From Candidatus Amphirhobacter sp. (GTDB taxonomy: Bacteria > Pseudomonadota > Gammaproteobacteria > Tethybacterales > Tethybacteraceae), in assembly GCA_965222035.1 (NCBI GenBank), contig OZ244940.1:1775852-1839851 (forward strand): a stretch of 64,000 bases of DNA, in the 5' to 3' direction. A program made the position numbers and the translations under genes. Under the pieces are notes generated by a model. It saw only the letters and a list, made by a program, of their open reading frames with translations, had not been told where the DNA came from and made no database searches. Positions 7,367 to 61,100 of this stretch are shown here, in pieces. Positions within the stretch are counted from its first letter, which is position 1; every line of letters starts with the position of its first letter.

Positions 7367-8530
7367 ATGAAAGTAGGTCTGATCGGCTGCGGCAACATCA
7401 GCGCGACGTACTTCAAGAACGTCCCGCTGTTCAAGGACATGGAAGTAGCCGCCTGCGCCGACATCATGCCGGAGGCGGCGAAGCAGGCCGCCGAGCGGTG
7501 GGGCGTCAAGGCTCTCAGCGTGGATGAGCTGCTCGCGGACGGTGATATCGACGCCGTCGTCAACATCACCATCCCGGCGGCGCACTGCGAGGTAAGCTGC
7601 CGCATTCTCGAGGCGGGCAAGCACCTGTACTCGGAAAAGCCGCTGGGCCTGGACATGGCCGAGGGGCGCAAGATCGAGCAGGCGGCCGCGGCCGCAGGCA
7701 AGCAGGCCTGCTGCGCGCCGGACACTTTCATGGGCGGCGCCCATCAGTTGGCGCGGCAGTGCATCGATGATGGCGCCGTGGGCAAGGTAACTTCGGGCAG
7801 CTGCCACGTCATGAACCTCGGCATGGAGATGTGGCATCCCAACCCCGACTTCTTCTTCCAGCCCGGCGGCGGGCCGATTCTCGACCTGGGACCGTATTAC
7901 ATCGCCAACCTGGTCAACCTGCTGGGACCGGTCAAGCGCCTCGCCTCCATGGCGAACGCCGCCCGCTCCGAGCGCACCATCACCAGCGAGCCGCGCGCCG
8001 GGGAGAAGGTCAAGGTCGAGGTCCAGACCACGGTGCTGGCCCTGCTGGAATTCGCCAGCGGCGCAGCGGTCACCCTGTCGGCCAGCTGGGACGTCTGGGC
8101 GCACCGCCATGCCAACATGGAGTTGTACGGCACTGAAGGGAGCCTGTATGTGCCCGATCCGAACTTTTTCAACGGCGATGTGATCAAGGTAGGTTCCGAC
8201 GGCAAGCAGGAGACGCTGCCGCCGGGTGACCATCCGCTCTACATCACCAACGAGATCCATGACATGGGCAAACTGGCGAACTACCGCGCTGTCGGCCTGG
8301 CTGAGATGGCCGACGCCGTCGCCGCGGGCCGCGAGCCGCGCTGCTCGCTCAGCCGCGCCTTGCATATCCTGGAGGTCATGGCCGGCATCCTCTCAGGAGC
8401 CGAAGCGGGCAAGTTCGTCGAGATGGAGACCAGCTGCGAGCGCCCGGCGCATTTCGGCGCGGCCGAGGCGGGAGCATTGTTCAAGGAATTGCCGGTAGCC
8501 GGCCAGGAGCAGAGTCACAAAAATGAGTAA
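7367..8530 (+). CDS. Gfo/Idh/MocA family oxidoreductase
   Basis: N-terminal Rossmann motif VGLIGCGNIS and the EKPL motif (LYSEKPLG). Confidence 0.8.
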   Translation: MKVGLIGCGNISATYFKNVPLFKDMEVAACADIMPEAAKQAAERWGVKALSVDELLADGDIDAVVNITIPAAHCEVSCRILEAGKHLYSEKPLGLDMAEGRKIEQAAAAAGKQACCAPDTFMGGAHQLARQCIDDGAVGKVTSGSCHVMNLGMEMWHPNPDFFFQPGGGPILDLGPYYIANLVNLLGPVKRLASMANAARSERTITSEPRAGEKVKVEVQTTVLALLEFASGAAVTLSASWDVWAHRHANMELYGTEGSLYVPDPNFFNGDVIKVGSDGKQETLPPGDHPLYITNEIHDMGKLANYRAVGLAEMADAVAAGREPRCSLSRALHILEVMAGILSGAEAGKFVEMETSCERPAHFGAAEAGALFKELPVAGQEQSHKNE

Positions 8531-11788: not shown

Positions 11789-14700
11789 GTGGCTGCGGCC
11801 CGGATGCCTGGGTTGCTGAGCATCCAGCGCTTCCTGCTGCTAGCGCTGCTAGTACTGCTGCCGGCCATGGCCCTGGCGCAGACGCAGCAGGTTTGGTTTC
11901 CTAATTCTGTTCCGAACGGCTGGAACTTCCGCATCAACCACGCTCCCGCCGGAAGTGTCAACCTGTTTGACGTGCATAACAATCCGAGTGAATTCGGTAC
12001 TGGGCTCAAATACGCTCACCAGACCGATTGCCCGAGCGGCGGGCCAGCTAGATACCACTTGCAAGATCAAATTATAGGACAAAATGATAGAGCATATTTC
12101 AAGCTCATTAGAAGTGACAATACATCAGGCGATTATGTAACCCTTACCAATCCAGCGACTCAGTATGCCACGCTCAATTTCAAGGCCAACCAGAGCTTCT
12201 CCGGGGAAACGACGTTAAATATTCGCGTATCGTTATACAGAGGTTGCAGCGGCGCTGTCACCTGGAGGCGAGCCACCATCTTCATCACGCTGCTAGCGCA
12301 GCGCGACATTCGCACGGCGGAGTCGCTGGCAGCGGCGGGCGTGTTCCGGCAAGCTACGCTAGCTAGCAACGTTTCCATCACGACGGGGATCGTGTTCCAG
12401 CGGGGCACGATGCGATGCCCGACGAACATGACCTTGCTGAGCCATACCGACGAGCTGCGCCTGCAGCATATGAATCCGTCGAGCAACGCCTTGACGGGCG
12501 CCTTGGCGACGGCGCACAGCGGCGTGGCGATGGGCGGGACCAACGCCCGGGCGCTGGCGCTGCTGTATAAGGCGGGGGCGACGGTGTCGCCGGGGGTGCT
12601 GACGGTCAAGGTCAAGGTGGACAGCCCCGCCAGCAACAACGCCTGTCCGGGTGCGTTCGCGCGTACGGTCACGGCGAAGGTGACGGCGGCCGCGTCGCTG
12701 GCGTGGACGACGGACGATGACGACGCGACGGCGGCGACAACGACGTTCGACACGCCACTGTCGAGCAGCACGCCGACGGGGATCAGGATCGCCCGCTATG
12801 CGGGCAGCTGCGAGTCGATGAAGGTGGCGCTGCCGGACAATCGGGTGACGGGCGCGGGCAACGCGATGGCGCGGGTGAGGGACATCATGCAGCTGCGCAG
12901 CGTGGATGACAGCTTGGACACGCCGGTGCTGGGCTCGCCGGGCTTCGATATATCGGTTGATGAAATCAACAGCGACGACATTTACGCGCGGCTGGAGCTG
13001 CGGGGCAGCCCGCCGGCGGGGACGCTGACGGTATCGGCGGTGGTGACGCCGGGCTGTTCGGACGAGGCGGCCCTGGCGGATCCGCAGACGCTGTCGTATC
13101 TGCTAACGGTGGAGGCGGACAACGCCTGGGAGATCGAGGGCAAGGACAGCGTGTCCACGACGCTGTCGTTTGCGGCGCCGGCGCTGGCGGCGGCGACTGC
13201 GCCGACGCCGACGGGAATCCGTCTGCATCGCAGCTCGACGAACTGCCGGGTGTTTGACGTGACGATGAGAAGCGGGGCGGGCACGTGGCTGGGGCTGCTG
13301 CGGATGACGGTGAACGGTAGCTCGACCACAGCGGTGGGCGCGCAGGGCCGGGGCTTCACAGGCGTGCACATGCAGGACGGCAACGCCGCGGACAATCATT
13401 TCCGGCTGGTGTTCGACGCTCGGGCGAACGTGGGCGCGACCACGCGGGTCGAGCGCGCGACGGTGGAGGTGAGGCCGGCGTCAACGTGCGCGGCGGCGGA
13501 CCGGCCGGCGAATCCGCTGACGTTGACCTATATGGTATCGATCCGGTCGGGCTATCGCGAGGTGGGCCCGAACGAGACGCTGCGGGCGGCGGCGGCGCTG
13601 CAGATCAACGAGCTGGCGGCGAGCGCGACGGCGGTCACCACGGGGATCAAGTTCCAGCGCGGCGTGGCGTCGTGTCCGAACACCAGCATGAGCTTGCTCG
13701 ACCACACCAGCTACCTGCGGCTGCAGCCGGTGAATGCGGCCGGCGCCCTGTCGGGCTCGCCGGCGGTCTCGCACACGAACGTGCCGATGTTCAGCGCCGT
13801 AGCGGCGAACAACCGGGCCTTGGCCTTGCTGTTCGCGCCGCGGGCGAATGTGCAGGCCGGGACCGTGACGGTACAGGTGCGGGTGGCGTCGGACACCACG
13901 CAGACGGGCTGCGCGGGCTTGGAAGCCACCACCATCACGGCCTCGGTGACGCTGGTGGATCCGACCACGTGGCAGACAGGTCCCAAGGCGCGGTCGCAGG
14001 CGGCCTCGGTGCTGCTGACGACGGAGATCGGCACCGGGGCGGACACCGGCATCCGCTTCAGCCATTTCACGGCGGCCTGTTCAGACTCGCGGCTGGTGCT
14101 GTCGGACCGGACGGTGACGGGATCGGCCGGCACGGCGCAGGCGCGCTCGATTGCGCGCTTCAGCCGGTACACCGCGGCCGACGTTCTTGAAACGGGCCAT
14201 GTCGGGTTCGACATCACGGTGGCCAACGCGTCGAACAACGTCTACGCGCGGCTGGAGATGATAGGTACGCCGCCGCCGGGGACGCTGACGTTCGCGGCGG
14301 TGGCGACGCCGGCCTGCTCGCCAGTACCGCCGGGGGTCGAGCCCTTGACGCTGTCGTATGTGGTGACGCTGACGGACCCGACGGTGTGGCAGACGGGCTC
14401 CAAGGCGCGCGGCTCGGCGGCCTCGGTGCTGGTGGCGTCGGAGATCGCGACCCAGCCGGACACCGGCATTCGTTTTCACAGCTACACGGCGGCCTGCGAC
14501 CGCGCGCGCCTGGTGTTGACGGACAGCGCGGTGACGGGCGCGGCCGGCTCGGCGCAGGCGCGGACGATCGCGCGCTTGCAGCGGTACACCGCGGGCGACG
14601 CGCCCGACGGCTCTCCCGGTCACGACATCAACCTGGCCAGCCTGTCGAGCGGGGTCCATGCGGGCCTGGAGCTGATGGGTACGCCGCCGGCGGGTACGCT

Positions 14701-16060: not shown

Positions 16061-16198
16061 TCACCCAGCCGCAGTGGCGCGGCTTATCAAAACTCGTGAT
16101 GCTCCAGCTCGACTCGGCAGTACGAGACGGCGATGTGCTTGCTCGATTGCAAGCCGGGTCAAGATGGATTGTTTGGAAATCGCATATATAATTCCCTT

Positions 16199-17656
16199 AT
16201 GGATATTGCGTCCCTGACCAGGAACGACATAACTGTTGAGTTGATCGACTCCTTGCTCGACCAGCCCGAGGGTCCCGAGCTCGAGTTCAAGGCGGAAGCT
16301 GGCTTCAACATCGATGAGTTATGCAGGTACTGCTGCGGCTTCGCTAATTCAGACGGAGGCCTGCTTGTATTGGGCGTGTCCGACAAGCGTCCGCGTCAGG
16401 TAGTAGGGACACCTGCCCTCCAAAACCCGGCCAAAGCCGAGGAGGCGCTTCATGCTCACGTTTCTCCTAAACCGCACGTGCAGGTGTTGGAGGTTTTCTA
16501 TCCGGAGGGGCAGAGAGTGGTTGCTGCGCTAATTAAGCGGCATCCACCGGGGGATCCTTGCGCGTATAAATCCGACTTCTGGAAGAGGAAAGGTACCCAG
16601 CTGGTGAAAATGGCCTTTGAGGATTTGAGAGAAATATTTAATGAAGTCCGTCCTCATTGGCTTGAGGCGCTGGTGGTTAAAAATGCGTCTGCCGACGAAA
16701 TTATCGAATTGCTCGACATCGAACAGTTTTACCAGTTGCAGCAGGCAAGAACCAGGCCAGCGCAGGTAGCCCGGATTATGAAAGATCTGCAAGAAGAGGG
16801 CATGATTGTCCCAACAGGTTCTAAAGGCAAGTACAATCTCAATAGGATGGGAGCGCTGTTGCTAGCAAAAAGTATCCGTGAGTGCTCCAAGGACTTGAGA
16901 TCCAAGCGGGTAAGGGTCATCAAATACCAGGGCAACGCCAAGAGTGATTCGGTTTCTTTAGATGAAGATTGGGACAAGGGCTATGCGACGGGCTTCGACG
17001 ATTTGGTGGATCTTGTGTTCAAGCAAATGGAAAATCGCCAAGTCTTCGAAAATGGCACCATTCGCCGGGACCAGGATTTTGTCCCGCAAACAGCGTTGCG
17101 GGAGTTGATTGCTAACGCCATCATCCATCAAGATTTTGAAAACGATCGTCAGCCAGTAGTGGAGATCTTTGACAACAGGGTTATTATAATCAATCCAGGA
17201 ATGTCATTGCTGGATGAAGAGGATATGATTCTCACGCATCAGGCCCGCAACAAGCAAGTTGTGGATGCGATGCGCCTGTTTGGTATTTGCGAGAAGCAGA
17301 GCAGCGGCATCGACAAGGCGATCATAGCTCTCGAAGAGGAGGGGCATGCTCCGGTCGAGTACCGGATGAGCAAGAGTGTCGGTGAGACAGAAGCCTACCT
17401 GCAAGGAGTGAAACCATATGAAGATCTGGGCAGGAAACTGCGAGAGCTTGCCTGCCGCCAGCACTGCGCAATCCGCTATGTGTTGGGAAATTACATGACC
17501 AACGAGTCATTGCGCAACAGATTCAGGCTGGATGAGGACAAGACCAAAGAAATCTCTAAATTGATTCACAAGATGGTGGAAGAAGGCCACATCAAGCCAT
17601 TCGAAGGCAACGGCAATTCCAAGAAATATGCTAGTTATGTTCCTGCCCGGGTTTAG
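16199..17656 (+). CDS. AlbA_2 (Schlafen-like) DNA-binding domain plus HATPase_c_4 domain protein ('RecG-like' putative regulator)
   Basis: The N-terminus has the ELEFK pattern of the AlbA_2 domain. ALRELIANAIIHQDF matches the HATPase_c_4 core. The C-terminus looks like a winged-helix region. The gene is AT-rich. The ORF track starts at 16133; MDIASL at 16199 is preferred. Confidence 0.6.
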   Translation: MDIASLTRNDITVELIDSLLDQPEGPELEFKAEAGFNIDELCRYCCGFANSDGGLLVLGVSDKRPRQVVGTPALQNPAKAEEALHAHVSPKPHVQVLEVFYPEGQRVVAALIKRHPPGDPCAYKSDFWKRKGTQLVKMAFEDLREIFNEVRPHWLEALVVKNASADEIIELLDIEQFYQLQQARTRPAQVARIMKDLQEEGMIVPTGSKGKYNLNRMGALLLAKSIRECSKDLRSKRVRVIKYQGNAKSDSVSLDEDWDKGYATGFDDLVDLVFKQMENRQVFENGTIRRDQDFVPQTALRELIANAIIHQDFENDRQPVVEIFDNRVIIINPGMSLLDEEDMILTHQARNKQVVDAMRLFGICEKQSSGIDKAIIALEEEGHAPVEYRMSKSVGETEAYLQGVKPYEDLGRKLRELACRQHCAIRYVLGNYMTNESLRNRFRLDEDKTKEISKLIHKMVEEGHIKPFEGNGNSKKYASYVPARV

Positions 17657-24905: not shown

Positions 24906-26279
24906 GTGATGAGCAGAGACCGTCCGCCCCTGTACGTCGCCATCCTGGCAGCGGGCAAGGGCAAGCGCATGGGCGCGCCGGTCTCCAAGGTGATGCTGCC
25001 GCTGTGCGGCAAGCCCATCTTGCAGCGCGTCATCGACGCCGCGGCCAAGCTCAAGCCGGCGAAGATCATCATCGTCGTCGGCGCCAATGAGAAAGAGATC
25101 CGCGGCCATGTGTCGGGCCCGCGCCTGGCCTTCGCGCGCCAGCCCCGGCTCGACGGCAATGCCGGGGCCATGAAAGCGGCGATGAAGCTGGTACCCGACC
25201 GCGCGCGGGTGGTAGGGCTGTTCGGCGACGGCGTGTTGACGACGGAGCAGATCGGCGCGCTGGCGGATGCGGTTGCCGACGACGCGGTCAGCATCCGGCT
25301 GCTGCGCACCGAGGACGCTTCGAGCTACAGCCGCTTTATCCGGGACCGGCACGGCAAGATCATCGACTTGATCACGCCGAAGTGCCTGACGCCGGCGCAG
25401 CGCATGATTACCGAGTGCGATGCCGGCGGCCAAGGTTTTCCCGCGGCCTGGGGGCGCCGGGAACTCACGCGCATCAAGCCGCATATGAAGGGCGGCGAGT
25501 TGTTCATGACGGATTTGATCCCAGCGGCGGTGCGGGATGGCATGCGGGTGGAGACGGTCGACGTCAGCGAGGAAGAGGGCGTGAATATCAACACGCCGGC
25601 CAGCCTGCTGCAGGCCGAGGCCCATCTATCTGCGCAGCTGGTCGCGGAGCTGCGCGCGCGTGGGGTGCTGATCGCGCAGCCAGCGAGCGTGCTCATACGC
25701 GGCGAGGTCCAAGCGGCGGCGGGATCCTTCATTGGCCCGAACGTGCTCCTTGCGGGCAAGGTGACGCTCAAGGCGGGCGCGATCATCAGCGCGAACTGCA
25801 TGGTCGAGGACTGCGTGCTGGACCCGGGCGCCCGGCTCGAGCCCTTCACCCATGCGGCGGGCGCGGTGCTCGGGCGTGATGCGATCGCAGGTCCATACGC
25901 ACGCCTGCGCGAGGGTACTGTACTTAAAGAAGGGGCGCAGATCGGCAATTACGTCGAGACCAAGGCCGCCGTGATTGGCAAGGGGTCTAAGGCCAAGCAC
26001 TTGGCCTATATCGGCGATGCGGTGATCGGCGACGGCGTCAACATCGGCGCGGGCGCGGTCTTTTGCAACTACGACGGCGTGCGCAAGCATAAAACCAAGG
26101 TGGGTAAGGGCGCCTTTATCGGCGCCGGTTGCATGCTGGTAGCGCCTCTGAGCATCGGCGCCGGGGCGCAGGTCGCGGCCGGAGCGGTGGTGGTACGCGA
26201 TGTGCCTGCGCGGACGTTGGTGCGGGGCCTGCCCGCGCACCGCGCCGCGCCCGCCCGGAAAATCAAGAAGAAGCGCTGA
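24906..26279 (+). CDS. glmU: Bifunctional UDP-N-acetylglucosamine pyrophosphorylase / glucosamine-1-phosphate N-acetyltransferase
   Basis: LAAGKGKRM nucleotidyltransferase motif. The C-terminal left-handed beta-helix hexapeptide repeats include IGDGVNIGAGAVFCNYDGVRKHKTKVG. Confidence 0.75.
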   Translation: MMSRDRPPLYVAILAAGKGKRMGAPVSKVMLPLCGKPILQRVIDAAAKLKPAKIIIVVGANEKEIRGHVSGPRLAFARQPRLDGNAGAMKAAMKLVPDRARVVGLFGDGVLTTEQIGALADAVADDAVSIRLLRTEDASSYSRFIRDRHGKIIDLITPKCLTPAQRMITECDAGGQGFPAAWGRRELTRIKPHMKGGELFMTDLIPAAVRDGMRVETVDVSEEEGVNINTPASLLQAEAHLSAQLVAELRARGVLIAQPASVLIRGEVQAAAGSFIGPNVLLAGKVTLKAGAIISANCMVEDCVLDPGARLEPFTHAAGAVLGRDAIAGPYARLREGTVLKEGAQIGNYVETKAAVIGKGSKAKHLAYIGDAVIGDGVNIGAGAVFCNYDGVRKHKTKVGKGAFIGAGCMLVAPLSIGAGAQVAAGAVVVRDVPARTLVRGLPAHRAAPARKIKKKR

Positions 26280-26752
26280 TGCCGGCAACGGTCGAGCAGG
26301 GCGATTATGACAATCCGCGCCATGCGCGGGCCTTGATTGAACTGACTCAGGCTTTCGCCGCCGAGCAGAACGATTCCGCCTCAGCGGACGGCGAGGACCT
26401 GCCGGAGCTGCTGAAGCTCGAGCAGCATGGCTTTTTCCTGCTAGCCCGCCAGGCGGAAGATTACCTGGGCCTGGCGATCTGCTTCCGACTGTTCTCGACC
26501 TTCCGCCGCCAGCCAATCATGTACATCCACGACTTGATTGTGGCGCCGGCCGGCCGGCGGCAGGGCATCGCCACGGCTTTGCTGCAGAGGATCGAGGAGA
26601 TCGCGCGCGAGCAGGGCTGCTGCAAGATAACCCTGGAGGTACTGGAGCGCAATGAAGGGGCGCAGTCGCTATACGCCAAGCTGGGTTATGGCGATGTGGT
26701 GTTGGATGAGAGTACCGGACGTACGTTGCACTGGGACAAGAAACTTATATGA
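26279..26752 (+). CDS. GNAT family N-acetyltransferase
   Basis: The ATG overlaps the glmU stop (TGATG). Motif A is LIVAPAGRRQGIATALL. The longer listed ORF from 26129 overlaps glmU and is not preferred. Confidence 0.75.
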   Translation: MPATVEQGDYDNPRHARALIELTQAFAAEQNDSASADGEDLPELLKLEQHGFFLLARQAEDYLGLAICFRLFSTFRRQPIMYIHDLIVAPAGRRQGIATALLQRIEEIAREQGCCKITLEVLERNEGAQSLYAKLGYGDVVLDESTGRTLHWDKKLI

Positions 26753-26755
26753 ATT

Positions 26756-28252
26756 CTAAGCGCCGTCAATCCTATCCATGCCCAAAGCCACGCTAAACTG
26801 CGCGGCTGGAATGACGCGCATGCCAGCGCCCAGCTGGGCGCTGTGCCCGTAACTGGCTTTGGAAGTGCAGTAGAGTTCCGGATTTGCTTTTTTCTTTTTA
26901 CTCCAGTTTCTTGCAAGCAACTGCATTCCACCTGAGACCTGCTCAAAGACCTTGTTGTCATCCTTCCATTTGATCTCAGCAAGCAGCTTGGGCCACCTAT
27001 CTTCGTTCAGGTAGCAAAGGTCTATTTCAAATGGTTGCGCCAATCTTTTGTATTCTAGATAACCGTATTCTTCAAAGGGCCTCTTCTTGTCAAATTGCGC
27101 TAGGGTCGCCGCCTCGACTCTGTTCCCTATGCCATGGCTGTCTTCCTTCACGCTCGCCTTAGCCAAGGAAGGCATCGAGCAGTTCTCTAGAATGAATTTG
27201 CAGTGCGTGTGCCGATGTTTCAGGAACTTCAAGTGCTGGTCAATCTTGCGAAAGCATTTGATGAAGTAGGCGCCCTCTAGAAAACTCAGGTATTTACGCA
27301 AGGTGAAGTCGTTGGTTTCCAACTCTTGTCTAGTTTGCTTCTCGCTGTATTGCGTGGCGTTGTTATTTACTAGCCGCTCGCCAAGGCGGCGGAGCAGATC
27401 CGAGCTGTTGACGCCAAACAAGAGCGGCAATTCATGCTCGACATAGAATGCAACAACGTTTTTCTGAGCACTAGCTCTCAGTTGTTCCCAAGATTTGCAT
27501 TCGCCGTTCTTGTACTCGTAAGCCAATGACGGAAAGGCTCCGAAGTTGATGTAATTGATGAATTCTTGGTTTAGTGCTTCTAGCTCCTCGGATGTCAGTT
27601 GCACATCGAGCATGGCATGGAACCCTTCCATCGGCAAGTTGGAGGGCCAAGCGTGTCTGAATTGCTTCAGGTACTCACAGAACAGAAGGGGTGGCAAGCG
27701 CATTTCGTCGATGCGTCCCAGCCCTGTTTCGCTGCGTTTTTTCTTCAGGATCCTTGCTGAAGATCCCGAGACCGCGCATCTGACAAAGGGTTGGCGATCG
27801 GCGATCACCTTCAAGTCATGTTCCCATTCATTGAAGAACTGGACTTCATCGATGATCAGCAACCAGTCTTGCTCTGGGTTTACGAGCTCCCGCTTGATCA
27901 ATCGTACGATGTCAAGGATGGCCATTCTTCTCAGCCTAGGTTCATCGCCGCTGACGAAGACGATTTGCTTGGGATTGTATTGGCCTGTCGCGATGGCGCT
28001 CCCTATTATCTGCATGAGCATGTGAGTTTTGCCCGTGCGCCGCAAGCCAATGAGAGCGACCACCTGGTCCTTGCGTCCTTGCAGTACTCTCTGCTCGAGA
28101 ATGGGGTAATACAGCCGATGCGGATCCCTGTGCTCCGGTGGCGGATTGCCATCAATCCACCAAGGATTGAGTTCCGTTTTTAGGACACTGACCATTTCTT
28201 CATGCATAAAAATATATTTCCCGTCATATTTTTTGACATTTGATTTTATCAT
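26756..28252 (-). CDS. AAA+ ATPase of the COG1373 / DUF4143 type with C-terminal D...ExK nuclease-like motif (paralog 1)
   Basis: Walker A GLRRTGKTH, Walker B LLIIDEVQ, and C-terminal FEIDLCYL...LAEIKW. The gene is AT-rich. The start at MIKSNV (28252) was chosen by homology of its start context with paralogs; MHEEM at 28207 is the alternative. Confidence 0.75.
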   Translation of the reverse strand: MIKSNVKKYDGKYIFMHEEMVSVLKTELNPWWIDGNPPPEHRDPHRLYYPILEQRVLQGRKDQVVALIGLRRTGKTHMLMQIIGSAIATGQYNPKQIVFVSGDEPRLRRMAILDIVRLIKRELVNPEQDWLLIIDEVQFFNEWEHDLKVIADRQPFVRCAVSGSSARILKKKRSETGLGRIDEMRLPPLLFCEYLKQFRHAWPSNLPMEGFHAMLDVQLTSEELEALNQEFINYINFGAFPSLAYEYKNGECKSWEQLRASAQKNVVAFYVEHELPLLFGVNSSDLLRRLGERLVNNNATQYSEKQTRQELETNDFTLRKYLSFLEGAYFIKCFRKIDQHLKFLKHRHTHCKFILENCSMPSLAKASVKEDSHGIGNRVEAATLAQFDKKRPFEEYGYLEYKRLAQPFEIDLCYLNEDRWPKLLAEIKWKDDNKVFEQVSGGMQLLARNWSKKKKANPELYCTSKASYGHSAQLGAGMRVIPAAQFSVALGMDRIDGA

Positions 28253-28584
28253 ATTGAAAACAAATAATAAAAACATGTATTGTATAAAAAATCCTATCAT
28301 CGCTAGATTTTTTGACATTTTAATATAAATATATGATAATATTGAATTATTCCATGTAGTAACTATTTGGCAGAGAATTGGGACTGTCGCTGCATTTAGA
28401 TCTGGCGGACCGCAGTATGCTAGATTGCTTCCCTATGTTGTTGCTGGCTGAGCGTCCCCGATTTCCCAGTGGAATACCGCTCTGCCCATCTCTTATGGGA
28501 TAAGAAACTGCAAGCTCTTGCAGCGGCGCTGGAGCAGTCAAGTTCGAATCATGCTACTTCTAATGCGTTCAGCCCCTAGGAAAA

Positions 28585-30042
28585 TCAGGACTGTTCATAG
28601 CCAATTCTTATCATGCCTAAGGCTGCGCTGAACTGCGCGGCTGGCAGAATGCGTATGCCTTCGGACAGCTTGGTGCCATCGCCGTAGCTGGTTCGGGAAG
28701 TGCAGTACAGCGCGGGCCTGACTGGATTCTCCTTGCTCCACTTCCGCATTAGACGTTCCATGTTGCCAGACGTTTGTTCAAATGCCCCGGCGCTATCTAG
28801 CCACTTTATCTCAGCTAGAAACTTGGGCCAGCCGTTCGTACCGAGATGGCAAAGATCTATCTCAAACGGCGGCACTGCTCTACCATGCTCAATGTAACCA
28901 TAGTCCTCGAAGAAAGATTTTTCGCTAAACTGAGATAAGGCGGCTGCCTTAACTCGCTTGCCCATGTCCAGGCTATCTGCATCCACAGCGTCCCCGACCA
29001 AGGATGGCATAGAGCAGTTTGCAAGAATGAACCTGCAGTGGGTGTGCCTATGCTTCAAGGTTTTTAGGTTCGGGTCAAACCTTCTGAAACACCTGATGAA
29101 GTAAGCTTCTTCGAGAAAACGCAGGTATCTTCTCAAAGTAATATCATTGGTCTGAAGTTTTTTCTTGATTTTTTGCTGGCCGTATTCCTGGGCATTGTTT
29201 TCAAGCAGCCAGCTTCCCAGGTCGTGTAGCAAGCCCGGGCTGCACGCGCCGAATAAACGAGACAGTCCGGGCTCGACATAGTGCTCAACAATATTCTTGT
29301 GCGCTTCCATCTTCAGCTCGTCCCAAGATGCGCACTGCTCGTCCTGGTATTCGTAGGCAAGCTGAGGAAAGGCGCCGAAATTAATGTAGTTGATGAATTC
29401 ACGGTTCAGTACCTTCAGCTCCTCGTCCGGCAGCCGCGCCTCGAGCATGGCTTGAACATCACTTGTTGGCAAGGCAGCAGGCCAAGCATTCCTGAATTGC
29501 TGCAGAAATTCGCAGAAAAGCAGAGGAGGAAGGTCCATCTCATAGATGCGTCCCAATCCGGTTTCGCTGCTCATGTTTTTCGCGATGGTCGCGGAAGAAC
29601 CCGAGGCCGCGCATCTGATGCGAGGCATGTGATCCGCGATTATCTTCAACTCCTGTCGCCAATTATCGAAGAATTGGACTTCATCGATGAGCAGCAGCCA
29701 GTCTTGCTTTGGGTTCACGATCTTTTGTTCGATCGCCTGTACGATTTCAGTGATGAGCATTTTTCTCAGCCCACCATAGTCGCCGCTGATGAAAACGATT
29801 TGCTGGGGAGCGTACTGGCCTGTCGCGATGGCGTCGCCCACCACCTGCTTGAGTATGTGCGTCTTGCCTGTGCGCCGCAGGCCCATAATGACGACAGCAC
29901 GGCCAACGCGTCCCTGCAGGATTCTCTTTTCGAGAATAGGGTAGTACATCCGATGGGGATGCGCATGTTCCGCTGGCGGCTTGGCATCGCTCCACCAAGG
30001 ATTAAGATAATCCTTCAGAAGCTGAACTGTTTCTTCCTTCAT
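28585..30042 (-). CDS. AAA+ ATPase of the COG1373 / DUF4143 type with C-terminal D...ExK motif (paralog 2)
   Basis: About 60% identical to paralog 1 by eye. It has GLRRTGKTH, LLLIDEVQ and FEIDLCHL...LAEIKW. Start at MKEETV (the listed ORF starts at the TTG at 30051). Confidence 0.75.
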   Translation of the reverse strand: MKEETVQLLKDYLNPWWSDAKPPAEHAHPHRMYYPILEKRILQGRVGRAVVIMGLRRTGKTHILKQVVGDAIATGQYAPQQIVFISGDYGGLRKMLITEIVQAIEQKIVNPKQDWLLLIDEVQFFDNWRQELKIIADHMPRIRCAASGSSATIAKNMSSETGLGRIYEMDLPPLLFCEFLQQFRNAWPAALPTSDVQAMLEARLPDEELKVLNREFINYINFGAFPQLAYEYQDEQCASWDELKMEAHKNIVEHYVEPGLSRLFGACSPGLLHDLGSWLLENNAQEYGQQKIKKKLQTNDITLRRYLRFLEEAYFIRCFRRFDPNLKTLKHRHTHCRFILANCSMPSLVGDAVDADSLDMGKRVKAAALSQFSEKSFFEDYGYIEHGRAVPPFEIDLCHLGTNGWPKFLAEIKWLDSAGAFEQTSGNMERLMRKWSKENPVRPALYCTSRTSYGDGTKLSEGIRILPAAQFSAALGMIRIGYEQS

Positions 30043-30154
30043 AAAAATCAATTATAATTTTTTACACAACATTCTATCATATTGATAAAAAAAGATAAAT
30101 AAATGTTATACAAAAAACCTTACTTTAATTATAATTTTTTATATAACACTATAT

Positions 30155-30177
30155 AATATTGAAAATACAAGATAAAT
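30155..30177. promoter_or_regulatory. Conserved AT-rich box upstream of COG1373 paralog 2
   Basis: AATATTGAAAATACAAGATAAAT lies about 113 nt upstream of the start. A near-identical box, GATATTGAAAATAAAAGATTAAAT, lies about 109 nt upstream of paralog 3 (50105-50128). Confidence 0.4.
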
Positions 30178-30350
30178 ATGTTTTATGCATAAAAATATAA
30201 CTTTATCTATGATTTTCGCATATAAGTTCTGAGATTGAGAGCACAAGCAAACCTTTATGCCGGCTATGGGGCGTAGCCAACTGGGCCGCGACACGTATTT
30301 CCCGTAGAATTACCGCCCCGCCCATCCCTCTGGGCCAAGGCAAAGCAGAT

Positions 30351-30803
30351 ATGGACCAAGCAAGCATCACCAAAGCCGCGCAGGAGCGCGCCGTCGCCGA
30401 AGGGCTGCCGTACGCCGGCTTGCTCACGCCGCAGGAGGCCGAGCAGATGCGCCAGGCCGACACTCAAGCCGTGATTGTCGACGTCCGCACCAAGGCTGAG
30501 CTCAACTATGTCGGGCGCATCCCCGACGCGGTCGAGATCGAGTGGCTCAGCTGGCCGGATGGCCAGATCAACGAGGGCTTCCTGGACCAGCTCAAGAGCG
30601 CCGGCGTCGGCGAGGAGCAGCCGGTGATGTTCATCTGCCGCTCCGGCGTGCGCTCGCACAACGCCGCCCTAGCCGCCCAGCAAGTCGGCTATCGCCAGGT
30701 CTTCAACGTCATCGAAGGCTTCGAAGGAGATCCGGACGACAATGGCCAGCGCAACCGTACCAACGGCTGGCGTTTTCACGGCCTGCCCTGGTTCCAATCC
30801 TAA
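30351..30803 (+). CDS. Rhodanese-like domain sulfurtransferase
   Basis: Active-site loop FICRSGVRSHNAA (CRxGxRS) in a 150-aa protein. Confidence 0.8.
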   Translation: MDQASITKAAQERAVAEGLPYAGLLTPQEAEQMRQADTQAVIVDVRTKAELNYVGRIPDAVEIEWLSWPDGQINEGFLDQLKSAGVGEEQPVMFICRSGVRSHNAALAAQQVGYRQVFNVIEGFEGDPDDNGQRNRTNGWRFHGLPWFQS

Positions 30804-30838
30804 GCCTATTTTCGGCTGCGTTCTCGCTTAAAATAGGC
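30804..30838. promoter_or_regulatory. Perfect 9-bp inverted repeat between the rhodanese gene and bioY
   Basis: GCCTATTTT, 17 nt, AAAATAGGC. It lies immediately after the rhodanese stop and 6 nt before the bioY ATG. Confidence 0.35.
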
Positions 30839-30843
30839 GTCTT

Positions 30844-31437
30844 ATGACTGCATCTACCCAAGCTCTCAATCTGAGCACGGCCCTGTGGCCGACTAAATCC
30901 GGGGTCCAGGCCTCCTGGCGCGCCACCATCCTGGCGGTGACCGGCTTCGTACTATTGACTGCCTCTGCCAAGCTGCAAATCCCGTTCTATCCCGTGCCCG
31001 TCACCCTGCAGACCTTCGTGCTGCTGGTACTGGGCATGGCCTATGGCCTGCGCCTGGCGACCGTAACCGCCACCAGCTACTATCTCGCCGGCATCGCTGG
31101 CGCCCCGGTGTTCGCGGCCGGTGCCGGCTGGGCCTATGCTGCGGGCCCGACCGGTGGCTATCTTGTCGGTTTTGTGCTCGCCATGGCGCTGATGGGCGCG
31201 TTCGGGGACCGCGGCTGGGGCCGCAAGTGGCACAGCATGCTCGTGCCGATGCTGCTGGGTACTGCGGTGATTTTCACCTGCGGCGTGTCCTGGCTCGCCT
31301 ACTTGATCGGCGTGGACAAGGCCATCGCCGGCGGACTGCTGCCGTTCCTGCCGGGCGAGGCGGCCAAGATCGTACTGGCCATGCTGCTGGTCCCGACTGT
31401 CTGGAAATACGCCAAGCCGGATTCCAGCTCGTCCTAG
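30844..31437 (+). CDS. bioY: Biotin transporter BioY
   Basis: LQIPFYPVPVTLQTFVLLVLG and GPTGGYLVGF are characteristic BioY segments. The protein is 197 aa and multi-TM. Confidence 0.8.
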   Translation: MTASTQALNLSTALWPTKSGVQASWRATILAVTGFVLLTASAKLQIPFYPVPVTLQTFVLLVLGMAYGLRLATVTATSYYLAGIAGAPVFAAGAGWAYAAGPTGGYLVGFVLAMALMGAFGDRGWGRKWHSMLVPMLLGTAVIFTCGVSWLAYLIGVDKAIAGGLLPFLPGEAAKIVLAMLLVPTVWKYAKPDSSSS

Positions 31438-38453: not shown

Positions 38454-39380
38454 CTAGGACTTGAAGGGCGTGTCGTAGCCTGCGTAGCTCTGCACGTATT
38501 GAAGGATATAGGTGCCGCTCTCATCCTGCGGATTCTTGCCATCGACCAGCAGGCTGACGACCCCGCCGGCGCCGCGCAGATGCGCGCCGGCCAGGAGCCC
38601 GGACAGCGTGATGGTGACCTCGTTGGGCAGGCCGCTCGGCGGGTTGGGCACCGGCGGGTCGAGCTTGTCCCAATAGACCTTGGTGTTGAGGTAGTCGGAC
38701 AGCTGCTTGCCGCGCGCTTTCAGTCCATCGACAATGCCCTGGTACTTGTTGGCGAAGTGATCTTTGATGATGAGGATTTGTTTGGAGGGGTCGCGGAAGT
38801 CAGCGTTGCTGCTGATGCCGTTCTTGCCAGTGAAATTACCGTCAAAGAAGTAAACGGTGTCCGTGATCCAAGTTGGTGTGGAGACCAAGGCAGGGTCGTT
38901 GGAGAAGAAAATAGATCGGCCTGCTTTCCAATAGCTTGGATCCACATCCACATAATGCACTGGAAACAGCACTATTCCTTCATCGCTGCTAGCAGGCGCG
39001 GGAATTTCGGTGAAGTTATAGTAGCCGAGTGTCTGCAGATCAGATTCCTGGAACTGGAAGCCTACGAAGCCCAGGTAGTTGATTACCGAGGCCTGTATCT
39101 TCGCCCAGTCGGGCTTGGGGTTGGAGGGATCGTACAGCGAATCCACGCCGATGATGGTGAAGAGTTCCTTGATGGTCAGGTTGTCCTGCATGATGGGATT
39201 GCCGTCTTCATCGCGCACGACCCGTCCGGGACTAAGAACCCTCGGATAGCTGAGCGTGGTGCGAAGTTCCCAGTAGTGGTTGTAGAAGTCTTGCTTCGCC
39301 GGATCGATGTCGGATTCGAAAATCCAGACCGCGTTGATGAAGTCGTCGTAGCTGCCGCCTTGTGGTTTTTGCTCGCTCAT
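38454..39380 (-). CDS. Hypothetical protein, no confidently recognised family
   Basis: 308 aa from MSEQKPQGG, preceded by an AGGAAGG RBS. No signal peptide and intermediate GC. It is divergent from the DUF4143-type ATPase across an AT-rich spacer. The segments GFVGFQFQESDLQTLGYY and GAHLRGAGG weakly resemble lysozyme-like/transglycosylase families, but I cannot assign one. Confidence 0.5.
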   Translation of the reverse strand: MSEQKPQGGSYDDFINAVWIFESDIDPAKQDFYNHYWELRTTLSYPRVLSPGRVVRDEDGNPIMQDNLTIKELFTIIGVDSLYDPSNPKPDWAKIQASVINYLGFVGFQFQESDLQTLGYYNFTEIPAPASSDEGIVLFPVHYVDVDPSYWKAGRSIFFSNDPALVSTPTWITDTVYFFDGNFTGKNGISSNADFRDPSKQILIIKDHFANKYQGIVDGLKARGKQLSDYLNTKVYWDKLDPPVPNPPSGLPNEVTITLSGLLAGAHLRGAGGVVSLLVDGKNPQDESGTYILQYVQSYAGYDTPFKS

Positions 39381-39597
39381 GATTAGCCTTCCTGGTGCAA
39401 TTATAAGAGGCTTGTGGAGCGAAGTACCATCTACCAGAAACAACGTGCGCTTCGCATCCCTGGAATTTCTACCTATAGAAAGATATTTTAGGAATAATCG
39501 ATGATTAATCATAAAAATTTATATATTATTTAAAAATATCAGTAATAATTGGCTATTTTCCCTGTATTTTTATATATTCTTGAAAAATCACAGCAAT

Positions 39598-45592: not shown

Positions 45593-45635
45593 ATATGCTG
45601 TAAATAGGTTAGAATTATCGTACAAATGACCCTCG

Positions 45636-45644
45636 CCCCCCCCC
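45636..45644. repeat. Homopolymeric C9 tract at the left edge of the tRNA-proximal AT-rich island
   Basis: Nine consecutive C residues, read directly, 44 nt after the ptsI stop. Confidence 0.95.
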
Positions 45645-45852
45645 TTCCAAAGGGTAGTTTCTGCCTGCAGTGAGACAGCCCTAGAGCATTCCTCTGCGCT
45701 TCGGTGGCAATCTAGGGACACACCCGATAATCCAAATTACTTAGGGCTTTTTTGTCTGCCCTATTGCTATTTCAGCGTTGCTTTGGGCAGCGCTGGTGCT
45801 GTGGATCAGCACATCTATCCTGTAGCTGGGAAACACCTCAAAGAGGCGATGC

Positions 45853-47334
45853 ATGGCTAAACCAAACTGGGACAACCGCACTCTGTTCCAGGGCGATAAT
45901 CTGGATGTCATGCGAGCTATGAACTCCGAATCAGTTGATCTGATTGCCACCGATCCACCTTTTAACAAAGGGCACGATTTCCATGCTACGCCTGATAGCT
46001 TAGCCGCTGGTTCTTCCTTCCAGGACCGCTGGACCTGGGAGGAGGTTCATGAAGAATGGTTGGAGCAAATCCAGGGAGACAGCCTAAAGCTAACGACAGT
46101 CGTCAATTCCGCCCGTAAAGCTCATTCAGACGGCATGGGAGCTTTCCTATGTTTTCTTAGCGTTCGCCTTATGGCCATGCACAGATTGCTGAAGCCAACA
46201 GGCAGTATTTTCATTCACTGCGACCATAGTGCCGGCCATTACATCAAATCGGCGATGGATGCTGTATTTGGCAGCGACAATTTCGTCAATGAGATTGTGT
46301 GGCGGAGAGCTGAAGCGAAAGGCAGGGCAAAGAGATCCTTCGGCAAAAACCACGATATTATTTTCTGGTATGGCAAATCTAGAAGCCGTATATTCAACCC
46401 TATTTATCGACAGCATGATGCGAGGTATTTGTCAAAATATCGGCATGTGGAAGAGGGAACGATGCGACGCTATCAGCTTGACAATCTAATTTCACCCAAG
46501 CCTAACCCTAAAACGCGCTATGAGTTCCTAGGTGTTACAAAGGACTGGCGCTGGACTAAGGAGCGTATGGAGCAAGGTTTTAAAGATGGCATAGTGGTTC
46601 AAACTAAACCAGGTGCGACAGCTAGGCTTAAGCGCTATCTTGATGAACAAGGTGGGCCCATGATTGACAGTATATGGGATGATGTGAAGGCATTAAACTC
46701 ACAGGCAAATGAGCGTACTGGATATCCCACCCAAAAACCAATAGTGCTTTACAAGCGAATCATAAAAGTTGCCAGCAATCCAGGAGATATAGTGCTTGAT
46801 CCGTTCGCAGGCTGCGCCACTACATGTGTTGCTGCCGAGATGGAACAACGGCAATGGGTGGGAATTGATATTTGGAACAAGATAGAAGAGGTTATCAAAA
46901 GCAGGCTCGAGCAAGAGCGCGAACTAAAAGATCTTGATCCAAATGAGATATTTCTTATTAAGAACTTGCCAGAGCGCACCGATAAGGGAGATGTAGCCGC
47001 CCATTATCTGCGCGTTCGCGAGACTACTAAGAATCCTTGTGACAGGGACAGATTTAAGAACAATAAAGAGAGGAAAGAATTCCTCATTAAGCGAGATGGC
47101 GTTCGGTGCGCAGGTTGCGATAGAATTTTCGATCGCCCTGAATACCTGGAACTAGATCACAATACGCCAAGGTCGAGCGGCGGCTGGGACCACATCAGCA
47201 ACTATGTTTTGTTGTGTCGGCCTTGCAATGGGGCTAAATCCAATACACTTACGCTAGAAGGGCTGCGAAAACGGAACAAGCAGCAAGGTTTCATGGACAG
47301 CCAGCCAGCACCCACTAGTCCCCACCTCTCATAA
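45853..47334 (+). CDS. Beta-class N6A/N4C DNA methyltransferase fused to a C-terminal HNH nuclease domain
   Basis: Motif IV IATDPPFNKG precedes motif I VLDPFAGCATT (beta-class order), and YPTQKP is present. The C-terminus (about 47095-47270) reads CAGC...LELDHNTPRSSGGWDHISNYVLLCRPCNGAKSN, an HNH with two CxxC pairs. The gene is AT-rich. Confidence 0.8.
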   Translation: MAKPNWDNRTLFQGDNLDVMRAMNSESVDLIATDPPFNKGHDFHATPDSLAAGSSFQDRWTWEEVHEEWLEQIQGDSLKLTTVVNSARKAHSDGMGAFLCFLSVRLMAMHRLLKPTGSIFIHCDHSAGHYIKSAMDAVFGSDNFVNEIVWRRAEAKGRAKRSFGKNHDIIFWYGKSRSRIFNPIYRQHDARYLSKYRHVEEGTMRRYQLDNLISPKPNPKTRYEFLGVTKDWRWTKERMEQGFKDGIVVQTKPGATARLKRYLDEQGGPMIDSIWDDVKALNSQANERTGYPTQKPIVLYKRIIKVASNPGDIVLDPFAGCATTCVAAEMEQRQWVGIDIWNKIEEVIKSRLEQERELKDLDPNEIFLIKNLPERTDKGDVAAHYLRVRETTKNPCDRDRFKNNKERKEFLIKRDGVRCAGCDRIFDRPEYLELDHNTPRSSGGWDHISNYVLLCRPCNGAKSNTLTLEGLRKRNKQQGFMDSQPAPTSPHLS

Positions 47335-47344
47335 TAGAACACAA

Positions 47345-48220
47345 ATGAACAAAAAACAAAAAACTGAGGCAACAGCTCCTAACGAAGGCAAAATCGAAGT
47401 GCGGGCTTCAAGCCTGCCAGCGATAGCAAGCTGCGCCCGCTACTACGCAGCCCAGGTGTACGGCAAGGAGGCATCCCAAGCACATCCTGACATCATGGAG
47501 AAGGTTGAAAAACGTGGCGGAGGCTATAAGTCGACCATGGGAGATGCCATGCACAAAATCATGCATCTCAATCTCACACACGAGGATGAGGTGCATAAGG
47601 CGGCTGACGAAGCTTTCGAGCGCAAAATAGAAAAGCCCGGTTTTTTCGATGAGAAGTTTCTCAACACTTCTGACCTGAAAGACACGCTTGTCAAGATGGT
47701 GCAGAATTGCCGGCAGAGCGAGGCTGTGCGCGAGTGGACGACTGAGCGCGAAGGAAATATCTACGAAAAACAGTGGGAGATTGATGATTTGGACCCGGAT
47801 TACATTTTGACGGGGCACATCGATTGCGTTCGCAAGGACGGGATGGTACTTGATTTGAAAATTGGCGTCACTACCGATCAGCAGCTCTACCAAGAGCAGT
47901 TAACTGCTTATCATATGATGGTAGAGCGCCAGGGGCGCGAAAGCCCTGAAATTGCCACTATCGTAAAAATAGCAAGGCCCAAAACTCCCAATTTCAAAGA
48001 AACAACATTGCGTGTCGTACGCTATGAAATACCAATCACAATTCATAAGAAAAGCATCCCCATCTTGGTCAAGAAGGCTGGTGATGTAAAAAGTAATTAT
48101 GATAATTTCAAAGAAGATTTCACAAAGTTGCCTGCCAATCCCGCTTGCCGCGCCTGCCAATGGTGCAAGCTCAAGAACACCTCAGGATGTCCTGAAACTC
48201 AATCAAGGATCATCGAATAG
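47345..48220 (+). CDS. Cas4/RecB-like PD-(D/E)xK nuclease with Cys cluster
   Basis: N-terminal Cys (IASCARYY), GHIDCV, LDLK (DxK), QEQLTAYHMM (QxxxY), and C-terminal CRACQWCKLKNTSGC. It starts 10 nt after the MTase-HNH stop. Confidence 0.7.
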   Translation: MNKKQKTEATAPNEGKIEVRASSLPAIASCARYYAAQVYGKEASQAHPDIMEKVEKRGGGYKSTMGDAMHKIMHLNLTHEDEVHKAADEAFERKIEKPGFFDEKFLNTSDLKDTLVKMVQNCRQSEAVREWTTEREGNIYEKQWEIDDLDPDYILTGHIDCVRKDGMVLDLKIGVTTDQQLYQEQLTAYHMMVERQGRESPEIATIVKIARPKTPNFKETTLRVVRYEIPITIHKKSIPILVKKAGDVKSNYDNFKEDFTKLPANPACRACQWCKLKNTSGCPETQSRIIE

Positions 48221-48565
48221 GATTGATTTTTTGTTTCCAATATCCGTAGAGCACGCCGGCAGAGCGTATTAAGATGATTCAAACCCACGCTGCCTTTGGT
48301 TGTCAGCCCCCCTAGCGCGCAACTGCACTGCTCGCTCGACATCGTGCTAGGCCGCCTGGATTGAGACAAACAAATAATACGATCTTCTCAAAATAAAACG
48401 TAATACGTATTTCCTGAAAAAATAGGAATTCGATATAAATCGCGTAAGATATTGAAATTCAAGTTTTTTCTTATATGCTTTGTTTTGCTAATCCAGGCTA
48501 ACGGTCGCAAATAAGCTGCGAAACGTCAATTCTCATCTCCAAGCAAGACCCGCCAGTTATCGGCT

Positions 48566-49996: not shown

Positions 49997-50104
49997 GTTG
50001 TCCGTCGCCTCCTATTGGTTAGGAGATAATTATATCATTTTGTACGAAATTTGATATTATATGTATTTGTTAAGAAGTGCAACATTTAGATATAAAATAT
50101 ATAA

Positions 50105-50128
50105 GATATTGAAAATAAAAGATTAAAT
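50105..50128. promoter_or_regulatory. Conserved AT-rich box upstream of COG1373 paralog 3
   Basis: GATATTGAAAATAAAAGATTAAAT. It is the counterpart of 30155-30177, at a similar distance from the start codon. Confidence 0.4.
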
Positions 50129-50208
50129 CCATATCTCTTATTTTGCCAAATCAAGCTTGCCAGCCGAAAAACGAGCCTGGCTTGCCTGTTTTCCTTGCCG
50201 AAGCAAGG

Positions 50209-50281
50209 CGTCCCCAAGGGGAGTCGAACCCCTGTTGCCGCCGTGAAAGGGCGGTGTCCTAGGCCTCTAGACGATGGGGAC
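50209..50281 (-). tRNA. tRNA-Glu (anticodon UUC), CCA not encoded
   Basis: The reverse complement reads GTCCCCATCGTCTAGAGGCCTAGGACACCGCCCTTTCACGGCGGCAACAGGGGTTCGACTCCCCTTGGGGACG. The cloverleaf is intact, with anticodon loop CTTTCAC. Confidence 0.9.
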
Positions 50282-50289
50282 CCGGAACC

Positions 50290-50365
50290 TGGTGGAGGTA
50301 AGCGGGTTCGAACCGCTGGCCTCTTGTATGCCATACAAGTGCTCTACCAACTGAGCTATACCCCC
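50290..50365 (-). tRNA. tRNA-Ala (anticodon GGC), CCA encoded
   Basis: The reverse complement reads GGGGGTATAGCTCAGTTGGTAGAGCACTTGTATGGCATACAAGAGGCCAGCGGTTCGAACCCGCTTACCTCCACCA. The G3:U70 identity pair is present. Confidence 0.9.
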
Positions 50366-59615: not shown

Positions 59616-59716
59616 GACGACGGCTCTATTTTAATTGGTGCGCTGGTTGAGCGAAGGAGTTCAGGCGTCGTGGCCCTGCGTCTGCTCAGAATTGATTTCG
59701 CTTAAAATACGATTGC

Positions 59717-60874: not shown

Positions 60875-60962
60875 TGTGCTCCATCCCACCCGGGCGGTGG
60901 CCATCTTTAAAATGCACCGCCGCGCCGCCGGAGTGAGAAGGACCGGGATGCGGTAAAAAGGG

Positions 60963-61020
60963 ATGGAGAGGAGCGAGCTGCCAGAGTGGTTCCGGGCGAA
61001 GCCTGGCAAGCAGCGCCTGC
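60963..61020 (+). pseudogene. Duplicated 5' fragment of the ABC permease gene (first ~19 codons, MERSELPEWFRAKPGKQRL)
   Basis: Nearly identical to 62444-62500. After the junction, the reading frame runs into antisense mtnK-derived sequence (chimeric 74-aa ORF 60963-61187). Confidence 0.8.
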
Positions 61021-61100
61021 TAGTCGGACTAGCTGTCGCCGAGCAGCGTGGCGGCCTCATCGAGGATGAGGTAGCCGGGCGGGGATTCGAGTTCAGGCAT
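61021..61100 (-). pseudogene. Duplicated 5' fragment of mtnK (MPELESPPGY... then premature stop)
   Basis: The reverse complement matches the first codons of mtnK (59615 downward). It has a few substitutions and a 36-nt internal deletion. Confidence 0.8.

Follow-up and report, generated by a model that had tools for sequence, protein, structure and literature searches.

PDC-S01 is a single-gene defence candidate whose product is described as joining an ATPase to a PD-(D/E)xK domain. Reported frequencies put it fourth among defence calls in prokaryotes (PMC12988326) and first among single loci in rumen genomes (PMC13356809). Its family, DUF4143/COG1373, was listed in 2012 as a PD-(D/E)xK family of unknown function (family 100; Steczkiewicz 2012, PMC3424549), and a further candidate, PDC-S27, also has an ATPase fused to a domain of the PD-(D/E)xK superfamily (PMC12988326). 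In this study we analyzed a 64,000-nucleotide stretch of contig OZ244940.1 (the window) from Candidatus Amphirhobacter sp., a sponge symbiont that has not been cultured and that is related to Betaproteobacteria bacterium AqS2. The fumarase encoded here shares 82% of its residues with the AqS2 enzyme, the next match reaching 67%. The window carries four genes of this kind, an adjacent pair, A and B, and two further copies, C and D (Table 1). Judged from their sequences, all four belong to the AAA_14/DUF4143 family (PDC-S01) and are resident in the chromosome. The kind is thus already known; A, B, and C are additional members in a divergent subfamily, and the addition made here is a population-level pattern, in which different allele lineages occupy fixed chromosomal sites in near-identical strains. 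An earlier note on this DNA held that the family has no established function and has been noted in defence surveys, which is still true, except that it is now catalogued as PADLOC PDC-S01. A–D have the same domain order and length class as PDC-S01, but A, B, and C differ in forming a divergent subfamily of ~480 amino acids (aa) that scores weakly on the DUF4143 model. To PDC-S27, in contrast, A–D give only faint matches at the level of the P-loop. As the function of the family is unproven, membership in PDC-S01 implies nothing firm on mechanism.

The family assignment is based on profile searches. The Pfam model AAA_14 (PF13173, gathering threshold 27 bits) matched A with 95.7 bits (2.8e-27), B with 84.9 (6.2e-24), C with 88.8, and D with 62.6 (4.8e-17), and E-values of 5e-17 to 3e-27 in all four indicate that the match is not due to chance. 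For DUF4143 (PF13635, threshold 28.1) the scores were 120.1 bits for D (9.8e-35), 30.4 for C, 20.7 for A, and 18.4 for B; the matches of A and B are colinear with the model, that of A covering positions 4–159 of its 160. The COG1373/DUF4143 assignment made in the earlier note is upheld by these searches, with four of the four proteins passing for AAA_14, and C and D for DUF4143. The PADLOC hidden Markov model (HMM) for PDC-S01 gave 1e-29 (A), 7.8e-28 (B), 3e-31 (C), and 1.6e-59 (D), with the HMM E-value as the sole criterion. No NCBIfam model matched the proteins, and the Pfam model nSTAND3 gave only a faint match, in D. When A was searched exhaustively, the number of cluster representatives fell from 2321 at E ≤ 1e-3 to 72 at 1e-30, and based on this drop we consider A, B, and C to form a distinct subfamily. 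Its proteins share an N-terminal NPWW motif and a CTS..Y..P.AQ tail, and close relatives of it were found almost exclusively in this sponge-symbiont clade. The nearest named homolog of A is from bacterium AqS2 (44% identity), and a public protein collection holds the exact B and D proteins.

A and B are intact and colinear, with 59.5% identity across 479 aligned residues, in agreement with the minus-strand tandem pair of ~60% identity that had been described. Gene A most likely starts at the ATG at 28207, which gives 483 aa beginning MHEEMVSV, colinear with MKEETVQ in B, or at the ATG at 28195, which gives 479 aa. Its longest open reading frame (ORF), to 28318, extends into the AT-rich leader and was judged unlikely to be real. 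In pairwise comparisons with A or B, C is 29% identical and D 23–27%. Profile comparison by hhalign aligned D to the family of A with a probability of 98.9% over 361 columns, running through the nuclease block, which identifies D at the profile level as a distant full-length homolog of A, B, and C that is unrecognisable by pairwise identity alone. The third paralog and more distant fourth claimed previously therefore stand, the latter with the qualification that it is a distant relative for which the profile is needed. All of the strings that had been reported for Walker A, for Walker B, and for EID...E[IV]K are present: GLRRTGKT, LL[IL]IDEVQ, and EIDLC..LAEIK in A and B; GPRRVGKT, YDEIQ, and EIDLA..LTEVK in C; and GQHQVGKT, LDEVH, and EIDLV..AIDIK in D. 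Besides the Walker motifs, A and B have a conserved E..ExD..ExK block.

To identify constrained positions, we used an alignment of 47 diverse homologs of A's subfamily, numbered according to A. In the Walker A motif, G50, G55, and K56 were invariant and T57 was present in 46 of the 47; in Walker B, D116 and E117 were each found in 46 and Q119 in 45. A sensor-like serine, S145, was invariant, and R161 occurred in 43 homologs. The residues of the nuclease block were also highly conserved (E361 in 42/47, E390 in 39/47, D392 in 45/47, E407 in 39/47, K409 in 41/47, W410 in 46/47, and D412 in 43/47). A full-length AlphaFold2 model of A built on the alignment had a mean predicted local distance difference test score (pLDDT) of 90.8 and a predicted template modelling score (pTM) of 0.92. 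The domain order suggested by the model is an AAA+/STAND-like nucleotide-binding domain, a helical region or lid, a winged helix, and, at the C-terminus, a PD-(D/E)xK nuclease, with which the chain ends, no repeat domain being present. Searches of the PDB by sequence detected no solved relative. By structure, the whole chain was matched best by CED-4, the NRC3 resistosome, the Apaf-1 and Dark apoptosomes, EfAvs5, RFC, ORC/Cdc6, and RuvB, with template modelling (TM) scores of ~0.3–0.4.

Modelled alone, residues 338–479 gave a pLDDT of 90.2 and the topology H-E-E-E-H-E-E-H, with an alpha-beta-beta-beta-alpha-beta core in which E361 lies in helix 1, D392 in strand 2, and E407/K409 at the end of strand 3. 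The top Foldseek matches of this domain were Cdn1, Can2, Card1, Bax1, McrC, EndoMS, DrdV, BsaXI, and NucC. Because residue conservation (83–96% of the 47), predicted topology, and the best structural matches agree, the C-terminal domain is supported by the modelling as a PD-(D/E)xK nuclease with residues E361, D392, and E407-x-K409. The claim of such a domain, for which structure prediction had been suggested as a check, is borne out by the predicted fold and the conserved E/D/ExK; neither a different fold nor unconserved motif residues, which the earlier note had named as refuting it, were seen in the model or the 47-homolog alignment.

The models also place A-type proteins relative to characterized systems. 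With STAND and AAA+ switch ATPases (CED-4/Apaf-1, NRC, and Avs proteins such as EfAvs5) they share the order of nucleotide-binding domain, helical region, and winged helix, and the coupling of an NTPase switch to an effector. They differ in that TM is only ~0.4, that no C-terminal repeat or sensor domain is present, and that the effector sits C-terminal to the winged helix rather than N-terminal; RFC, ORC, and RuvB match the A model almost as well as the STAND proteins. The nuclease domain has the core topology of Can2/Card1/Cdn1, McrC, and Bax1, with E, D, and ExK likewise on helix 1, strand 2, and strand 3, but no relationship to these at the level of sequence. Moreover, the activator is a CARF domain in Can2/Card1/Cdn1 and a separate GTPase, McrB, for McrC, whereas in the A family it would be an ATPase, in the same chain as the nuclease.

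Comparison with related strains revealed how these genes have evolved. AAA_14 genes occupy the same three sites in contigs of five related strains with 92–95% nucleotide identity to the window, and the islets are not recent insertions. Proteins of the flanking genes are 93–99% identical between the window and these strains, D orthologs 82%, and C 91% or 68%, while B is 73% identical in L033 and L034, and A and B are 95–96% identical in L001. Relative to L033 and L034, flanking genes had 0.11–0.32 synonymous (dS) and 0.003–0.036 nonsynonymous (dN) substitutions per site, as against a dS of 0.49–0.56 and a dN of 0.15–0.16 for gene B. D had a dS of ~0.58 and a dN of 0.09 to L004 and L005, and C a dS of 0.60 and a dN of 0.20 to L005. 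A and B compared to L001 had a dS of 0.10–0.12, which is not above that of the flanks. This indicates that the synonymous clock of these genes is not intrinsically fast and that alleles have been swapped, and the excess divergence seen elsewhere would mean that different, older allele lineages sit in the same slot. In its flanks L033 is nearer to the window than L001 is, the neighbouring rhodanese being 99.3% identical in L033 and 95.3% in L001, yet it is L033 that has the divergent B allele. Identity along the alignment leaps from 60–85% to 95–99% exactly at the boundary between leader and rhodanese. Values of dN/dS of 0.13–0.33 for the family genes indicate, as far as substitution patterns can tell, that the proteins are functional and under purifying but relaxed constraint.

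The origin of the tandem pair was evident from its spacer. In L001, L033, and a contig of run X5, the spacer between B and A has ~150 bp of the 3' end of the GNAT gene fused to ~90 bp from the 5' region of the rhodanese gene. The joint lies at 30389|26604, and the independent X5 contig shows the same 30389->26604 connection. We interpret it as the point at which, after a tandem duplication, the end of one copy of the segment rhodanese-5'...gene...GNAT-3' meets the start of the next. The window retains a relic in which 14 nt of the GNAT 3' end is joined to a copy of the spacer on the rhodanese side, most of the junction having been deleted. The junction relics are 84–87% identical to their parent sequences and A versus B has a dS of 1.44, so that, allowing for constraint on the parent copies, the A/B split would be roughly six times older than the junction. 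It follows that the second slot took in a divergent allele or that one of the copies was replaced at a later time, and the gene tree agrees with this, since B groups with the single-copy alleles P0007, P0005, P0003, and P0008 (73–78% identity) and A with P0001 and P0002. Copy number at the locus also varies: L034 has one gene, the window and L001 have two intact genes, and L033 has one gene and, in addition, an A-type copy from which ~950 bp is missing internally. A short-contig joint of 26992->28844 in runs X1–X3 was rejected as a probable assembly chimera of conserved stretches of the paralogs, having a 24-nt side and 16 unmatched letters.

A second low-GC tandem pair, at 59717–60874 and 61199–62356 (plus strand), encodes 385-aa P-loop proteins of the AAA_22/ATPase_2 type that are 64% identical (dN 0.25, dS 0.67) and have no PADLOC match. 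Its spacer holds relics of the same kind of duplication junction, 60878–61020 being a copy of 62360–62501 (92%) and 61051–61198 a copy of 59566–59716 (85%). Only the P-loop of these two proteins aligns with A's family, and they were not counted as members; in this they, and with them the archaeal ATPase_2 (PF01637) type of protein, are unlike A–D.

The four genes stand apart from their surroundings in base composition. Their GC content is 0.49–0.53, with 0.59–0.64 at third codon positions (GC3), compared to 0.64–0.70 and 0.82–0.95 in backbone genes, and their leaders have a GC content of only 0.18–0.34 in a genome backbone of ~66% GC. The earlier description of AT-rich islets in a ~66% GC backbone, each with a leader of its own, is thus accurate for all four. 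Two copies of TTTCAATATNAT (28248–28259 and 28336–28347) and an extended -10-like TGATAAAAT lie in the A leader. The B leader also has two copies of the motif and consists of a ~90-bp unit duplicated in tandem (30050–30138 and 30127–30216, 79% identical); Tandem Repeats Finder reported nothing relevant, this duplication lying below its sensitivity. The single-copy allele of L034 appears to carry three such units (7780–8000 of that contig), each terminating in a start-codon-like TTTTATG[C/T]ATGA. From their sequences, the units in B and L034 look like repeated duplications of a promoter and start region. The C leader (49997–50130) has one copy of TTTCAATATNAT and TGATATAAT, and the D leader (39513–39597) is 18% GC.

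With at most one mismatch, TTTCAATATNAT occurs six times in the 64 kb compared to 0.19 expected from shuffles of the whole window, an expectation that makes the excess look more significant than it is in AT-rich DNA. The minus strand carries all six, two each in the leaders of A and B and one each in those of C and of C2, a lost copy considered below, and the motif was found again in leaders of relatives. This consistent orientation and placement suggests that TTTCAATATNAT may be a promoter or operator that the cassettes have in common and that is passed on with them. A scan for sigma-70 promoters and terminators found 9 compared to 4.2 expected, and is uninformative in DNA this AT-rich; an Rfam scan of 26000–31000 gave no match. 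In other high-GC hosts (L008, L009, and L026), homologs have a GC3 of 0.88–0.93, near host values. The cassettes of the symbiont clade have stayed at a GC3 of ~0.6 despite allele lineages that predate the strain splits.

The site of C is a hotspot bounded by a PEP-utilising enzyme gene and two tRNA genes, and its contents vary considerably between strains. L004 has C and a second copy, C2, with 53% identity between the two; in L005 and L006, C' and C2 are accompanied by a 326-aa ORF and a C5 methylase; and the window has C together with two other genes, of which one encodes an N6/N4 DNA methyltransferase (MTase) fused to a C-terminal HNH nuclease, and the other a 291-aa protein with weak Cas4/RecB-like matches and a C-terminal cysteine cluster (CRACQWC...C). 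In relatives, C2 is a 478-aa AAA_14 gene, and the alignment with L004 stops at its start codon, 48351. The foreign segment in the window, 45594–48350 as bounded by comparison to L004, abuts that position exactly, and the leader of the lost gene remains as a relic, with its TTTCAATATNAT motif at 48446–48457. A tRNA-derived direct (att) repeat was searched for at the far end of the C islet and none was found. That no mobility gene lies beside the copies, as the earlier note had it, holds; to be added is that the C islet adjoins two tRNAs and carries the MTase-HNH and Cas4-like genes.

Low-GC islets in the window outnumber those listed in the earlier note, and since the additional ones include a restriction enzyme, a Schlafen-type gene, the MTase-HNH gene, and the AAA_22 pair, the window is a defence-rich stretch of chromosome. 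At 32–1873 (plus strand, GC 0.46) lies the C-terminal two-fifths of a Type ISP/IIG restriction-methyltransferase, cut by the start of the window (Type_ISP_C, 5e-81; PADLOC REase_MTase_IIG, 3e-181). A protein with Schlafen AlbA_2 and HATPase_c_4 domains is encoded at 16133–17656 (plus strand, GC 0.50) as a single-gene islet between high-GC genes; it matches a PHROG annotated as a DNA helicase (4e-42). Adjoining D and divergent from it, 38454–39512 (minus strand, GC 0.54) holds an ORF of up to 352 aa that had no Pfam, NCBIfam, PADLOC, PHROG, or PDB match. It is 78–83% identical between strains, with called lengths of 241 and 304 aa in L004 and L005, and may be D's partner, one more gene that evolves fast, or one in decay. 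In another organism (L002), a SocA_Panacea-domain gene (12004–12489) and a long run of glycosyltransferase genes accompany an A-type homolog, P0013, with which a second paralog, P0014, shares a 251-kb contig.

Table 1. Coordinates of the AAA_14/DUF4143 genes and associated features in the window.
Feature	Position	Strand	Basis
Gene A, AAA_14/DUF4143 (PDC-S01-type) ATPase-nuclease	26756–28207	-	ORF, Pfam, PADLOC, AlphaFold2
AT-rich leader of A	28208–28350	-	Sequence, motif count
Duplication-junction relic	28450–28509		Alignment with L001; full junction in L001 and L033
Gene B, AAA_14/DUF4143 paralog, 485 aa	28585–30042	-	ORF, Pfam, PADLOC
AT-rich leader of B	30043–30230	-	Sequence, motif count
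Gene D, canonical AAA_14 + DUF4143 protein, 405 aa	39598–40815	+	Pfam, PADLOC, hhalign
Cargo replacing C2: MTase-HNH (45853–47334) and Cas4/RecB-like nuclease (47345–48220)	45853–48220	+	Pfam, PADLOC, PHROGs
Relic leader of lost C2 copy	48351–48565	-	L004 alignment, motif
Gene C, third paralog of A/B subfamily, 476 aa	48566–49996	-	ORF, Pfam, PADLOC
tRNA-Glu(ttc) + tRNA-Ala(ggc)	50207–50365	-	ARAGORN

On the evidence of these alignments, each gene with its AT-rich leader behaves as a cassette at a fixed chromosomal site, and alleles recombine between strains. Copies stack in tandem and then, as the strain comparisons read, decay or yield to modules of the restriction-modification (RM) type. 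Such birth-and-death is typical of immune genes. Taking together the domain order, the conserved residues, the purifying selection, the allele swapping, and the position of C beside RM-type genes, we consider the balance to be tipped slightly in favour of A–D acting in defence. Several points weigh against such a role. PDC-S01 is still an unvalidated candidate, no member having been shown by experiment to defend, and in the one functional test found, a PDC-S01 representative placed in E. coli B and challenged with T7, T5, and T4 was not among the four protecting candidates (10.1101/2024.09.26.614923). A and B score under Pfam's threshold for DUF4143, the structural matches of the nuclease domain are modest (TM 0.37–0.55, one below E 1e-3), and the genes immediately beside A, B, and D are not defence genes. 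Divergence is fairly even along the whole protein, with no obvious hypervariable patch that could be a sensor, and the unusual composition of the genes may account for part of the increase in dS.

The earlier note had left the choice between immune sensors and selfish cassettes. A selfish or mobile cassette, in which a homing-endonuclease- or addiction-like nuclease copies the gene with its leader so that the copies represent intragenomic spread, would account for several copies in 64 kb that have their own leaders and a shared TTTCAATATNAT motif, for their foreign-looking composition, and for replacement boundaries that are precise to the cassette. However, every copy sits at the same site in the strains of 92–95% identity, an ordinary segmental duplication, taking in pieces of both flanking host genes, gave rise to the tandem pair, and the paralogs are old, with dS 1.4 for A–B and saturated for A–C. 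Integrase- or transposase-sized ORFs were found in none of the four islets, and neither were terminal inverted repeats or target-site duplications; comparison of the flanks with themselves gave only the duplication-junction relics. The genes had no relatives in IMG/VR and no family in PHROGs, with only 2 weak matches among 50,697 phage records and 13 among 72,556 plasmids, all of the latter non-mobilizable. The A–D cassettes do not qualify as mobile genetic elements, and we consider selfish spread very unlikely. Because of the fixed positions, the lack of mobility signatures, the near-absence from phages, and the purifying selection, the immune sensor fits better than the selfish cassette.

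It is also unlikely, if not to the same degree, that the proteins are housekeeping or regulatory factors in DNA transactions, such as winged-helix ATPases of the ORC/Cdc6 or clamp-loader kind that serve replication, repair, or the control of transcription. Matches in fold to ORC, RFC, and RuvB, conserved positions in every strain examined, purifying selection, and the very wide distribution of the family would be expected of such factors. An amino-acid divergence of 18–32% between strains whose neighbouring genes differ by 1–7% would not, and nor would copy-number polymorphism with decayed copies, replacement by RM-type modules, or a persistently foreign composition; a conserved nuclease triad would also be unexpected in a pure regulator. 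That the genes are functionless relics of past horizontal transfers, decaying in place, is hardly credible. Their low GC, the deleted copy in L033, and the loss of C2 in the window might suggest decay, but the four window genes are intact over 405–485 codons, with a dN/dS of 0.13–0.33 and their catalytic motifs kept.

If the proteins do act in defence, the most likely mechanism, drawn by analogy, would be an ATPase switch that activates the C-terminal nuclease. Foreign DNA or a foreign protein would trigger the switch, causing ATP-dependent oligomerisation as in ORC/Cdc6, clamp loaders, and the apoptosome/Avs-type STAND proteins. Oligomerisation would gather the nuclease domains, and these would then cut nucleic acid so that the invader is restricted or the infection aborted. 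The family also resembles clusters of nucleotide-binding leucine-rich repeat (NLR) receptors in evolving via tandem duplication and allelic series. More tentatively, and as a proposal that we regard as having the odds against it, the cassettes may correspond in bacteria to an NLR cluster: a multi-locus repertoire in which balancing selection keeps STAND-like nuclease receptors that recombine at cassette boundaries, are stacked in tandem as divergent alleles, and are then lost or exchanged for RM modules, with TTTCAATATNAT as a common regulatory handle.

If this NLR-like reading were true, old allele lineages would be being shuffled between strains in a genome-reduced sponge symbiont. The window represents a natural experiment, with several paralogs in one small genome, an allelic series at fixed loci across near-identical strains, tandem stacking that can be dated, and one copy swapped for RM-type genes. 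PDC-S01 is very common, yet its activity has not been demonstrated by anyone, and the patterns seen here, which are those expected of immune receptors, make a stronger case for testing it and single out the residues and alleles with which to do so. Overall, our data add to the picture of sponge symbionts as organisms that invest heavily in defence despite genome reduction.

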